Part shown: one piece after another, positions 8,174-17,039 of the stretch | How the letters are laid out: each line of letters starts with the position of its first letter | Numbering within the stretch: the stretch's first letter is position 1 | Source of the DNA: a virus | Taxonomy: Duplodnaviria > Heunggongvirae > Uroviricota > Caudoviricetes | Strand: one strand, 5' to 3' | DNA length: 17,177 nucleotides | IMG/VR virus record: IMGVR_UViG_2671181056_000008 | Location: 1-17,177 of that record | Position numbers and translations under genes: made by a program | The notes under the pieces: generated by a model | The model's database searches: none | Seen by the model: only the letters and a program-made list of their open reading frames with translations | What the model was told of the DNA's origin: nothing

Positions 8174-9859
8174 TCATTTAACGCGTTTGAAAACGTATAC
8201 GCTGACTGTGATCCCTGTGTCTTCAAACTCGTTGGTAAACGACTTCCCTCTGGCATAAACGTAATTATCCATCGTCATCCAGTCCAGTATTGGCGCAGTG
8301 CCCGGCAATACTGCTACAAGACGCCCGCCGACTTTCAGATGCCCCAGCGCAGCCAGCGTGTGCTCTCTATGACGACCAAGCGAGTACGGCGGGTTCATAA
8401 CGATTTTGTCGAACTGATAACCTGCGTTGTCCTCAGACCACTTTATGAAGTCGCAGCAAATCGTGTTCGTATACCCTTTTCCACGCAGGATATCAGCGAA
8501 GAGAGGTGCGATTTCTATGCAGGTAACATCTTCCAGATCGGCGTTAATATAGGCCAGAAGATCCCCACGTCCGGCTTGAGGCTCCAACAGCTTCTCACCA
8601 GGCTTCAATTCAGTGGCTCTGGCAACGTACTCAGCAATCAAGCGTGGGGTAGGGTAGAACTGGTGTGATTTTGTATCCGGTATTAAACCGGTAGCCACAA
8701 TCGTATTTAGCGTATGGCCGATCTCATACGGGAACTGCCAGTGCTTTTTCTCCTGCACGCCGCCAATGAAGCTCAGTGTGCGCTCAAGCTCTTCCACCTG
8801 CGACTTCTGGAGAGCTGAATCAGAGAAGTACCATACGCCTTTGTCTTTGCTCAATCGCCCGTCACGAAGCGCAGTGCGAACCGGCACGGAGATCGTCTTC
8901 TGGATTAACCCGAACTGCTTTGGTGCCCGTGTTTTTGGCGCAGTTCGGCATGGCGCGGGGATTGCAGCAGGCATACTGTAAGCCAGCACCTCATTCAACT
9001 TCCAGGCCACGTCAGGATGTATTTCAAAGTGAACGTTGCCGTTCTTGAACATCTTCACGCGCATCAGATTTCCATCGACGTTCATCCAGTCACCGGTCTG
9101 GCAGTCGTTTGCCCGATACGCAGCTGATAGCACCTCAGCAGTGCGGTTGATGGTAATAAATTCTTTGTGCGCGAAGAAATGAAGCAAGACACGCAGATCG
9201 TCGATGTAGTCCTCTTTGCGATAGTTCACGCTAACGCTGTCACGCCAGAAATCAGAAATGCAGTCAGCGATTATCAGACGCTCGCTGAAACCGTTTGTCT
9301 TATTTGTCTTGTGCGCAGGACTCAGCGCCTTAAACAAGCCATACACGCGCTCAGAGAGATATTTGTGCCTGTCATTCAGCAAATTAAGCATCGTTGGTAT
9401 GACCGTTTCTGCTTTGAACTCCGGTACACCAACGAACTCTTTAACCTTCATCTGATAGCCGGTTCTGTCAGTTTTGATGACTTCCTGCTTGCCCTCGATA
9501 AATAGCTCACGCCACTCGTCGCGACGGGAAGCTGGCATGATCAGCAGAACGTTAGTCATATCCGTAACCTTCCTCCAGTACTCGGCCCAAATATTCTGTT
9601 TCACCCATTCCAGATCGACGTTATCCAGCCAGACTCGATTCAAACGTGAGCGATCTTCATCTGGTCGGTGGTTTAGTCGAAGCAGGCGATTAATCATGTT
9701 GTGGCGTTCATCGCCATAAACGAAGTCGTGTACCTGATACATGAAGGAGATCTCTTTCTCGCACTCGGCCACAATTTCGTGGATGACGTTCATTTCCTGT
9801 CGATAGTCGATAGCAGTGTTTGAGCTGGCATCGCCCATGATGGAAAGGGCTGTATTCAT
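8174..9859 (-). CDS. two-domain protein with C-terminal N6-adenine DNA methyltransferase domain
   Basis: 561 aa; FYPTP, then SAM-binding EPQAGRGDLL, then NPPY about 70 residues later (gamma-like motif order), only about 55 residues after NPPY; N-terminal 400 aa unassigned. Confidence 0.85.
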   Translation of the reverse strand: MNTALSIMGDASSNTAIDYRQEMNVIHEIVAECEKEISFMYQVHDFVYGDERHNMINRLLRLNHRPDEDRSRLNRVWLDNVDLEWVKQNIWAEYWRKVTDMTNVLLIMPASRRDEWRELFIEGKQEVIKTDRTGYQMKVKEFVGVPEFKAETVIPTMLNLLNDRHKYLSERVYGLFKALSPAHKTNKTNGFSERLIIADCISDFWRDSVSVNYRKEDYIDDLRVLLHFFAHKEFITINRTAEVLSAAYRANDCQTGDWMNVDGNLMRVKMFKNGNVHFEIHPDVAWKLNEVLAYSMPAAIPAPCRTAPKTRAPKQFGLIQKTISVPVRTALRDGRLSKDKGVWYFSDSALQKSQVEELERTLSFIGGVQEKKHWQFPYEIGHTLNTIVATGLIPDTKSHQFYPTPRLIAEYVARATELKPGEKLLEPQAGRGDLLAYINADLEDVTCIEIAPLFADILRGKGYTNTICCDFIKWSEDNAGYQFDKIVMNPPYSLGRHREHTLAALGHLKVGGRLVAVLPGTAPILDWMTMDNYVYARGKSFTNEFEDTGITVSVYVFKRVK

Positions 9860-9962: not shown

Positions 9963-10864
9963 CTAATCATACTTGGATGTATTTATAACCAGGACTTTAT
10001 TTGTATATAGTTTTTTTACATTCCATGTAACATTACTTGAATACCATTCACCATTATATATTTGGTTTCCCGTTGCGCCTGTCATTGTTACGTATACAGG
10101 TCTGTCGTAAGGTGTTCGTCTATAGTTATATACTCCAACCATTGCAGGCATTATCGCACACGGGTATCCCATATTTATGGTAAATTGAGGATTTGTAATA
10201 GTGATAATCTCTGCATCAAGGGGCATCATCTCACCGTGATATACCATTTTACCTGCGCTATTATACATGGCAATACCATATCCTGAATGTGGTAACACCA
10301 TATCAGAAAAAGCATAAACTGTTATCGTTCCGGGGTTTCCTCCAACCTGATTCAGTCTGAGAACATTATACCCATCTCTAAATTCATGAACGAACATCAT
10401 ATTCGCCTTATTACTGCTTTTTATAAAGAAAAAACATGATTTGTTCGACGGTATTGAAGTCTTAAAAACAGAACCTTTAGACGTGGACATTGTCCCCCTA
10501 TTAATCAAATTTTGCGGTGTAAATTCTGGACTCATCCACACATTACCATTTGACTGAGTAATTGACATCCCGAACATTATTGTTATCCCCAATATGTATA
10601 TATATAAGATCCAAGTCCCTTGTATAAATTTGACCAACTTACTGTATTGCCGTTAATAGTGATAGTTGGTGTAGGTATATTTACATGGTTATCGTTATTT
10701 AAAGGCATCAATGAGCACACAGCATGTAATGATTTGCCAGGTGGTGGATTTGGGTAAGTCTTAGAGCCTGACGTGGTTGTAAATCGATCAAGAAAAAAAA
10801 TAGGAGTAAGGAAGCCGGTAACGTTAACTCCCTTATTATTGTAGATCCCTGTACCGTATGCCAT
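9963..10864 (-). pseudogene. AT-rich gene split into two frames at a (TA)5 tract
   Basis: Frame A (10583..10864, 93 aa) has a good ribosome-binding site; frame B (9963..10637) continues 200+ aa from a TTG. Frames differ by one nt and the (TA)5 tract at 10597-10606 lies in the overlap; removing one TA fuses them. Confidence 0.4.
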
Positions 10865-12304: not shown

Positions 12305-12493
12305 TCAGAAATAACCAAGTACCGAACCGACTGGAAAAATAAAAATCCCAACTACACGAGCCAAGGTCATGCCAGCCTGAAACTGGAGATCGCCAGAGCA
12401 AACAAGTTTTATAATGTTCGATACCCAACCGGCGGCCATGAGGGCAAGAATTGCCAGCCAAATTTTTCCAAAGTGATTTGAAAACCAGTTCAT
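12305..12493 (-). CDS. small membrane protein, 62 aa, two predicted TM helices
   Basis: Two hydrophobic segments (IWLAILALMAAGWV, VVGIFIFPVGSVLGYF); ATG overlaps the stop of the 12490..12741 frame (ATGA) and lies 9 nt after the 12503 stop. Confidence 0.5.
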   Translation of the reverse strand: MNWFSNHFGKIWLAILALMAAGWVSNIIKLVCSGDLQFQAGMTLARVVGIFIFPVGSVLGYF

Positions 12494-12502
12494 ACAACCG
12501 CC

Positions 12503-12997
12503 TTAGTCACAGCATGATCCTGAGTAACTGGATGAACTTGAGGTATCGCATCCACCGTCATCCCATCCAGAGTGACAGGTCGCTCTACTGGAGTGGTGGT
12601 AATTGTCGTCGACGGAGGTGTGGTGATGGATGAATCCGGCATCAAAAGGCTCTGACCGGCTGGAACGGCTACCGTCGCCAGTGAAACTATAATGAGAACG
12701 TAGGCCATTGGTTTCAGCCTCTTTCTTTGAAAATTTTCCATTCGAACTGTCCTTGTTGTTTTTCTCCTTCACTAAAGGCCGTGCATTTTTCGCTTCGCGT
12801 GAAGAACCAGAGGCAACAATCGCCCACACGTTCGCAACAACTGACGCTTGATTATCTAAACGTTCATTCAGCAACCGAACGGTAGTCTCTAGTTCATCAA
12901 GGCGTGACATAACACGACCGCTAAATAATTCGGCCAAAATTTGACGTAAAGAACGAGGACGTTTAGTTACAGAAGTGAAATAGGTTTGACGTGCCAT
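12503..12997 (-). CDS. hypothetical protein, 165 aa, with a second signal-peptide ORF nested out of frame
   Basis: ATG at 12997 behind GGAG; N-terminal 60 aa protein-like, C-terminal half Ser-rich low complexity and overlapped by 12490..12741 (signal-peptide-like MAYVLIIVSLATVAVPAGQSLL). Which frame is expressed is unresolved. Confidence 0.45.
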   Translation of the reverse strand: MARQTYFTSVTKRPRSLRQILAELFSGRVMSRLDELETTVRLLNERLDNQASVVANVWAIVASGSSREAKNARPLVKEKNNKDSSNGKFSKKEAETNGLRSHYSFTGDGSRSSRSEPFDAGFIHHHTSVDDNYHHSSRATCHSGWDDGGCDTSSSSSYSGSCCD

Positions 12998-13026
12998 GTG
13001 GACTCCATCCAGTGTCATAAAGAGTT

Positions 13027-14735: not shown

Positions 14736-15329
14736 CTAAGCAGCCTTCTTTGATGGTCTTTTTTTCCTGATCACATTCGCAGGATCATACCCTCCCAGAC
14801 TTTTCATGACGTCCAAAGGGATCTTGCTTATAGAGTGCCCAGCGTCCTGACAGAATCCTCGAAAAACAACGAGCATACTGCCACCGGGGTTGATGTTTAC
14901 TTCTACCTGACCCAAATTGACGTCAGGCTCGACAAACGCTACGCGGCCACCAGACAGAATAATCGTCTCATTCGCATACTCTGTTGCACGCTCATACCAC
15001 TTTGTATCGAGGGATTGAGGAATTAGCATCACTGTAGTAACTCCGCGAGCCTGCTCACGTATAGCAGCATCAATCCAGGGGGAGATTTTGGAGTAGGGTG
15101 GATTGAGGAAGGCAATTGTACCTGGCTGTCCCCATTCAGATTTCAAAGCATCACGCTCAATGCCTATGAAATTAGGCAGCTTTGCGTTGTCCTTGTTGCA
15201 GGCAACGTCAACATCAAATGTCACTCCAAGATAACGTTGAATGGCAGAAAACAGCCAATCAGGTGTTCTCCAGAGGTCACGAAGAGAGTTGTCGCGCTTT
15301 CGCTGTTTGATTTTTTCGGCTGCAATCAT
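14736..15329 (-). CDS. phage-type DNA N6-adenine methyltransferase (Dam family)
   Basis: 197 aa; WRTPDWLF near the N-terminus and NPPYS catalytic motif, typical of the small phage Dam family. Confidence 0.85.
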   Translation of the reverse strand: MIAAEKIKQRKRDNSLRDLWRTPDWLFSAIQRYLGVTFDVDVACNKDNAKLPNFIGIERDALKSEWGQPGTIAFLNPPYSKISPWIDAAIREQARGVTTVMLIPQSLDTKWYERATEYANETIILSGGRVAFVEPDVNLGQVEVNINPGGSMLVVFRGFCQDAGHSISKIPLDVMKSLGGYDPANVIRKKRPSKKAA

Positions 15330-16481: not shown

Positions 16482-17039
16482 TTACACAATTTCAGAGGGT
16501 AATTTAAAAAATCCGTATTTATTACGTGCCTTAAAGAAGCATTGCATCATTAAGTTTGTGTCATATAAGGCACTATGTGCTTTGGCATGATCGTATATAA
16601 AGCCAAGAGAGAAGGCCAATTCTTCAAGGCGAGGACGTTTACCGTCTTCTGTGGCCCACAATCCCGATAACATAGTATCTATAACGGGAACGTCTGGCAG
16701 TCTTACTCCATACCCTGAAAACTCGTGTCTAATAAATGGTATATCAAACGCTTCGCCGTTATGAGCAACCCACGCACTACATGCCTCCATATAAGCGCCA
16801 ATTTCGCTAGCATGATTTGACAACAAAGGTTCAGCTGCGAGCTGTTCTAATGAAATGCCATGAACGGCTTGAGCTTTCGGATCTATGTTTCTGCGAGGGT
16901 TAAAACGCATCTCCAGACTATCAATATGTCTCTGTGTCTCCAGTTCATAGCGGGTAATTGCGATTTCAATAATTTTATGACCAGCAAGGAAATCCAGTCC
17001 CGTAGACTCGATATCGATGCCTGCAACAATCGTTGTCAT
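16482..17039 (-). CDS. DnaQ-like 3'-5' exonuclease (DEDDh family)
   Basis: 185 aa; Exo I GIDIESTGLD, Exo II HNGEAFDIPF, Exo III HSALYD; ATG at 17039 behind AAGGAG. Confidence 0.85.
   Translation of the reverse strand: MTTIVAGIDIESTGLDFLAGHKIIEIAITRYELETQRHIDSLEMRFNPRRNIDPKAQAVHGISLEQLAAEPLLSNHASEIGAYMEACSAWVAHNGEAFDIPFIRHEFSGYGVRLPDVPVIDTMLSGLWATEDGKRPRLEELAFSLGFIYDHAKAHSALYDTNLMMQCFFKARNKYGFFKLPSEIV

Follow-up and report, generated by a model that had tools for sequence, protein, structure and literature searches.

The window analysed here, a stretch of 17,177 nucleotides of viral DNA (IMG/VR record IMGVR_UViG_2671181056_000008), carries at positions 8174..9859 a minus-strand gene whose product is probably an orphan N6-adenine DNA methyltransferase of an SSU5/pHCM2-type backbone, shielding the DNA of that element from restriction. 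The gene is a single open reading frame (ORF) with an ATG start that encodes 561 amino acids and a stop codon, as seen in both the ORF list of the window and the minus-strand translation, and the plus-strand reading of the same positions is riddled with stops. At the nucleotide level it is 100% identical to positions 38176-39861 of NC_018651.1, the plasmid p09EL50 of E. coli O104:H4 str. 2009EL-2050, and its product is identical to WP_014962270.1 of that plasmid, which is annotated as a "DUF4942 domain-containing protein". The counterpart in SSU5, gp095, is annotated "DNA methyltransferase" and shares 90% DNA identity with the window gene. Among 5426 complete E. coli genomes, 251 carried the gene, and 247 of the 256 matching places were plasmid-borne. 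On the basis of these matches, the window belongs to an SSU5/pHCM2-type phage-plasmid. The DUF4942-methyltransferase gene is real and was previously catalogued, as a member of a large database family.

The methyltransferase assignment comes from the C-terminal part of the protein, in which motifs X, I, II (E449), III (D470) and IV, followed by three more strands, are arranged colinearly with one another and with M.TaqI (Table 1). In an alignment of 22 homologues, with identities down to 33%, E449, D470, F471, D484 and I486 were invariant in addition to the motif residues listed in Table 1, and this invariance of catalytic residues argues that the motifs are not chance resemblances. When a family profile of residues 321-561 was compared with PDB sequences, M.TaqI ranked first (E 1.6e-6), followed by EcoR124II HsdM (1e-4), a site-specific adenine DNA methyltransferase and then Erm enzymes; ErmAM scored 2.8e-4 and METTL5 0.06. 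The closest solved relatives of the core were M.TaqI, CamA and M.BseCI, and sequence identity was 25-27% to M.TaqI and CamA as against 17% to METTL5. Pfam methyltransferase families gave only sub-threshold scores over residues ~400-520, with N6_Mtase (PF02384) at 13.8 bits not reaching its gathering score of 20.4; 7 of the 22 homologues matched that model at E 0.01 or better (best 7.9e-6), and it is the profile and fold searches that show relatedness to the class. Taken together, sequence comparison provides good evidence that the core would be an amino-methyltransferase closest to the gamma-class DNA adenine enzymes, with some uncertainty on its substrate class.

The architecture around this core sets the protein apart from its solved relatives. 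M.TaqI, CamA and M.BseCI are gamma-class Type II N6-adenine DNA methyltransferases with a large C-terminal recognition domain, whereas this protein ends 69 residues past NPPY and has ~395 residues ahead of the core. We built an AlphaFold2 model on the 22-sequence alignment (mean predicted local distance difference test score (pLDDT) 83; predicted template modelling score 0.71). It runs from a disordered tip (1-16) and a helical hairpin (20-62) through an alpha/beta module (~83-305), a linker and a small alpha/beta element (to 395) into a seven-strand Rossmann domain that reaches the C terminus (396-561). In the model, the 69 residues after NPPY form a helix (493-505) and strands (508-519, 533-542 and 551-559) that complete the Rossmann sheet, and neither sequence nor model revealed a C-terminal target-recognition domain, all 69 residues being Rossmann-fold elements. 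With only this much past NPPY, the architecture is therefore atypical for gamma-class N6-adenine DNA methyltransferases. An initial annotation of the stretch had given the correct coordinates and length of the protein, omitting the strand, and had described a complete adenine-type methyltransferase domain, a description borne out by the invariant motifs and the M.TaqI-first profile search. The gamma-like order that it reported for FYPTP, EPQAGRGDLL and NPPY is correct, the motifs lying within the last 161-166 residues. Its count of about 55 residues after NPPY was too low, and its point that too little room is left there for a target-recognition domain holds for the actual 69, all of which go into the modelled sheet.

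No nuclease partner was found in the window or beside distant homologues of the gene: the flanking proteins had no Pfam, PADLOC or nuclease-type PHROG match, and such PHROG matches as they had were to families of unknown function or to membrane "moron" proteins. SSU5 has Ant and another gene upstream of its homologue, unlike the window. In one Variovorax and one Enterobacterales prophage, orphan methyltransferase genes of the N6_N4 and C5 types adjoin the homologue in the early/replication region; in IncHI2 plasmids a 563-amino-acid homologue has a Dam-family methyltransferase gene ~1.8 kb away, and a Pseudomonas IncP plasmid encodes a homologue of 577 amino acids. The neighbours thus differ in every one of these other contexts. 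Several PADLOC Type II methyltransferase models matched the protein, as did mad2, the methyltransferase of MADS (residues 394-523 against profile positions 265-401 of 492, E 1.1e-15), a match that covers the generic catalytic core only; MADS models had no match in the four other window proteins scanned against PADLOC, both flanking genes included. Because the flanking genes have no nuclease or defence match, the neighbours are not conserved and the mad2 match is limited to the core, we conclude that the gene is an orphan methyltransferase, in agreement with the initial annotation, which had seen no restriction partner.

The N-terminal part was matched by Pfam DUF4942 (PF13708) at residues 140-295 (71.3 bits against a cut-off of 25), and all 22 aligned homologues match this family. 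PHROG 6263 ("DNA methyltransferase") matches the protein over its full length (E 2e-298, residues 1-561 against profile positions 1-548 of 548). The initial annotation had called this part an unassigned 400-residue domain; a named family does exist, although it is one without known function. The domain search and structure prediction proposed there as checks yielded the DUF4942 match and an alpha/beta module at ~83-305, but residues 1-320 of the model had no matching solved fold, and no PDB sequence matched a sequence profile of the N-module at better than E 0.4. In the literature we found no functional data for DUF4942/PF13708, for SSU5 or pHCM2 methylomes or for strain 2009EL-2050, and neither published N6-methyladenine (m6A) or motif data nor a functional study of the DUF4942-methyltransferase family.

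In the 22-sequence alignment conservation extends over the entire protein, and the DUF4942 module is well conserved. Mean pairwise identity was 53.6% in the DUF4942 core (146-305) versus 48.5% in the catalytic domain, and identity to the eight most distant homologues was 42% versus 41%. Many N-module residues were invariant in this alignment (W95, R164, E170, S180, H183, T185, N186, D221, R223, D262, H277, H281 and R305). Of the 22 homologues, 21 have a mildly basic DUF4942 core and 21 have an acidic catalytic domain. Variation is concentrated in residues 1-82, the hairpin 123-145 and residues 306-362. The first of these is the most variable part of the protein (26.6% mean pairwise identity), with an isoelectric point of 4.5-6.1 in 22 of 22 homologues. 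Conservation was 26.3% for residues 306-362 versus 39.0% for 363-395, an element with conserved G366, G367, F376, Y378 and P394; the whole segment 306-395 accompanies the methyltransferase core in other phage proteins.

The fused protein is widespread. A first homologue search found full-length relatives by the hundreds, on ~100-kb contigs, in Escherichia, Salmonella, Klebsiella, Citrobacter, Cronobacter, Xenorhabdus, Providencia and Morganella, along with proteins of 34-38% identity in other Proteobacteria. An exhaustive search with residues 1-400 gave 614 clusters (50% identity level) at E ≤ 0.001; among the best 150 of these, nearly all are 500-580 amino acids long and match in the N-terminal ~400 residues, and this near uniformity of size and match position indicates a stable fusion. 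DUF4942 was encountered in just two arrangements, ahead of the methyltransferase core or on its own. A search with an Acinetobacter stand-alone DUF4942 protein, made to find others, returned only 12 stand-alone relatives. An apparent IncHI2 methyltransferase with a partial DUF4942 turned out to be a copy truncated by an insertion sequence rather than a distinct architecture. In phages, the methyltransferase core matched 233 records versus 41 for the N-module, and the core occurs without DUF4942 in ~190 records. Residues 328-560 are matched by PHROG 9133 (profile length 1259; E 1.9e-50), so the last ~230 residues form a unit present also in other, larger phage proteins.

DUF4942 in turn occurs without the methyltransferase. 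A tblastn search with residues 110-320 matched 2598 of 72,556 plasmid records, 1621 of them conjugative, and many of the matched plasmids carry a stand-alone DUF4942 protein of 267-288 amino acids. That of pRK1 (WP_001077028.1, 282 amino acids) aligns to residues 83-303 with an hhalign probability of 98.7% and ends where the N-module ends; residues 83-305 correspond to the entire conserved part of the stand-alone proteins. The stand-alone proteins are only ~20-25% identical to the N-module, and H183, R223 and H281, invariant in the fused subfamily, are replaced in them. Four conjugative plasmids of MOBP/MPF_I type (pRK1, pEC27-3, pESBL-EA11 and a plasmid from Serratia) carry the stand-alone gene ~0.7-2.5 kb from nikA/mobA and in the same orientation, on the psiB-psiA side of the relaxase genes; psiB and psiA themselves were directly seen in pESBL-EA11 and the Serratia plasmid. 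The pESBL-EA11 copy (WP_001077053.1, 18948-19796 of the pESBL-EA11 stretch examined) shares its leading region with ardA, psiAB, ssb, klcA and the orphan methyltransferase gene M.EcoGIX. None of the stand-alone copies examined in plasmids has an adjacent methyltransferase gene. Plasmid leading regions are enriched in anti-defence genes (PMC11541004), and in CP4-type genomic islands a stand-alone DUF4942 copy (L0010) follows KlcA, RadC and toxin-antitoxin genes (PMC6980539). Like these proteins, the window protein is borne by a mobile element among early/establishment genes; unlike it, they have no methyltransferase domain.

On the reading that we favour, residues 396-561 would bind S-adenosyl-methionine (SAM) through motifs X, I, II and III, and methyl transfer to a flipped-out adenine would take place at the NPPY pocket, by homology with M.TaqI and CamA. 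Since the core lacks its own recognition domain, the DNA would most likely be held by the parts ahead of it, namely the element 363-395 and the mildly basic DUF4942 module (83-305). DNA of the element that is methylated in advance would then escape cutting by the restriction enzymes of the next host, as the genomic context and established knowledge of orphan methyltransferases suggest. A DNA-holding role for the N-module is plausible, being compatible with the recognition-domain-less core and the mildly basic DUF4942. Three observations nevertheless point away from a pure recognition role: DUF4942 is as conserved as the catalytic core, it stands alone near the origin of transfer (oriT) in leading regions, that of pESBL included, and many phages have the core without it. 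The proposal of the initial annotation that the N-terminal part supplies DNA recognition thus stays plausible and is partly contradicted by these three points.

The same observations lend themselves to another explanation, possible if unlikely, in which DUF4942 is an autonomous establishment or anti-defence module that binds entering or replicating DNA structures, a replication/repair protein or a host restriction component, and the fusion tethers a low-specificity m6A methyltransferase there, a logic that resembles the case of M.EcoGIX, which is reported to associate with DNA polymerase I. Consistent with autonomy, the stand-alone proteins end exactly at the end of the N-module, lie in the leading regions of the four conjugative plasmids without an adjacent methyltransferase gene and, in CP4-type islands, follow the KlcA-RadC-toxin/antitoxin genes (PMC6980539), and the module matches the catalytic domain in conservation, while residues 328-560 are separately mobile (PHROG 9133) and the core does without DUF4942 in phages. 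Yet this explanation draws on a family without any member of known function, no partner has been identified, and the low identity and the replacement of H183, R223 and H281 suggest that the fused and stand-alone forms may differ in function. The fusion is also very stable, as expected if both parts share one substrate. It is doubtful that DUF4942 is, more generally, a widespread establishment/anti-defence module of mobile elements, autonomous in leading regions and islands, that here brings the recognition-domain-less methyltransferase to a host factor or to DNA of the element as it enters or replicates, with broad, low-specificity protective methylation as the outcome.

We also considered that the substrate is RNA (m6A or N2-methylguanosine in ribosomal or transfer RNA) or a protein amide, the enzyme being a phage host-takeover factor. 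This is improbable. The only NCBIfam matches of the full protein were of Erm and KsgA type and far below threshold (12-17 bits against 171-350); RNA-methyltransferase models of NCBIfam overall scored 12-19 bits against 171-350, and RrnaAD reached 12.3 bits against 24. The fold similarity to such enzymes reflects the shared Rossmann core. DNA enzymes rank above ErmAM and METTL5 in the family-profile search, M.TaqI and CamA exceed METTL5 in identity, and in phage replication modules the gene repeatedly has other DNA methyltransferase genes as neighbours. Least probable is that the gene supplies the modification activity of a restriction-modification system, or of a methylation-dependent defence system such as MADS, and has its partner among the hypothetical neighbours: the mad2 and Type II matches and two uncharacterised flanking genes would allow it, but mad2 matches the generic core only, the flanking proteins have no PADLOC or nuclease-family match, the flanking genes are not conserved alongside the methyltransferase and the upstream pair is a low-GC insert encoding membrane proteins.

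These two small genes (9963-10864, minus strand) occupy a patch of 0.38-0.40 GC immediately upstream of the methyltransferase gene, compared with 0.45-0.50 in the surrounding DNA. Their PHROG matches are to PHROG 425, a moron-category "membrane associated protein", and to PHROG 557 ("outer membrane protein"). As SSU5 has the Ant anti-repressor and a different gene at this place, the pair looks like a swapped-in moron cassette.

Known systems offer analogies and limits. M.TaqI and M.BseCI belong to restriction-modification pairs, whereas this gene has no partner. M.EcoGIX and M.BceJIII are single-strand-specific orphan m6A methyltransferases of conjugative-plasmid leading regions; M.EcoGIX protects the entering strand against restriction and is silent during laboratory growth of its original host (PMC7736820). 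Both M.EcoGIX and the window protein are orphan adenine methyltransferases of mobile elements that are presumed to act ahead of restriction and, by analogy, the early-region DUF4942-methyltransferase gene is likely to be silent in laboratory growth as well. On pESBL-EA11, M.EcoGIX is a beta-class "DNA methylase" of 227 amino acids (N6_N4_Mtase PF01555, E 1.6e-40) with DPPY before the SAM loop, and BLASTP aligned it to the window protein only at motif IV, over 28 residues (E 0.021). Judged by sequence, M.EcoGIX would be a functional analogue at most and no relative, and neither its single-strand specificity nor its polymerase association is implied for the window protein. Identity of the window protein with M.EcoGIX of E. 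coli O104:H4, a 227-residue beta-class enzyme with motif-level similarity only, was ruled out.

A second orphan methyltransferase is encoded in the same block of the window (14736-15329, minus strand; 197 amino acids; Dam family PF05869, E 5.4e-38). The two genes share element, strand, early block and a presumed anti-restriction role, but the Dam-family protein is of an unrelated subfamily, has a single domain with another motif arrangement and has no Pfam DUF4942 match. Almost every gene of the window is on the minus strand, in a long early/DNA-metabolism block whose products include a 3'-5' exonuclease, a Dam-type methyltransferase, RNase HI, a TerB protein, a ClpX-type zinc-finger protein, a toprim protein and an S24 peptidase; at 1332-2457 and 16482-17039 (minus strand) we noted the S24 (UmuD/LexA-like) peptidase, the stand-alone toprim-domain protein and the DnaQ-like 3'-5' exonuclease. 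A promoter and terminator scan around the methyltransferase gene did no better than on shuffled sequence. Two long minus-strand ORFs, 12490-12741 (83 amino acids) and 12503-13018 (171 amino acids), overlap in different frames where RefSeq has genes of 495 bp and 189 bp. On the plus strand, 194-1294 is the phage-plasmid's own apbC (iron-sulfur carrier), with metG adjoining beyond the window, the pairing found on the E. coli chromosome. This apbC has only ~83% DNA identity to chromosomal apbC and occurs on ~220 E. coli plasmids. The plasmid copy is a host locus acquired long ago from a related enterobacterium. Just beyond the window, p09EL50 encodes DfrA51, annotated as trimethoprim-resistant.

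Table 1. Positions in the window of the DUF4942-methyltransferase gene and of the parts of its product
Feature	Coordinates	Strand	Description
Complete coding sequence	8174..9859	-	561 amino acids; DUF4942-methyltransferase fusion; ORF list, translation, identity to p09EL50, PHROG 6263
Residues 1-82	9614..9859	-	Disordered tip 1-16 and acidic helical hairpin (helices 20-48 and 52-62); AlphaFold secondary structure and pLDDT
Residues 83-305, DUF4942 module	8945..9613	-	Alpha/beta, mildly basic; variable beta-hairpin insert 123-145
Residues 306-395	8675..8944	-	Variable linker 306-362, then small conserved alpha/beta element 363-395
Residues 396-561	8177..8674	-	Minimal SAM-dependent amino-methyltransferase Rossmann core; gamma motif order; no recognition domain behind
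Motif X HQFYPTP, residues 399-405	8645..8665	-	Q400, F401, Y402, P403 and P405 invariant
Motif I EPQAGRGDLL (SAM-binding loop), residues 426-435	8555..8584	-	P427, A429, G430 and G432 invariant
Motif IV NPPY (catalytic), residues 489-492	8384..8395	-	N489, P490 and P491 invariant; 492 is Y or F in all homologues

Orphan methyltransferases are a main route by which phages and plasmids pass restriction barriers, and resistance genes are spread among Enterobacteriaceae by SSU5-type phage-plasmids. Databases already contain the protein; what is unusual is its architecture, that of a presumed anti-restriction orphan methyltransferase, borne by a mobile element, with a DUF4942 N-module. The methylated motif, once known, would explain part of the host range, clean up the methylome annotation of carrier strains and show how a core without the usual recognition domain finds its DNA. 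If DUF4942 proves to be an independent establishment factor, this would also provide a function for the gene beside oriT in the examined IncI-type and related MOBP plasmids.
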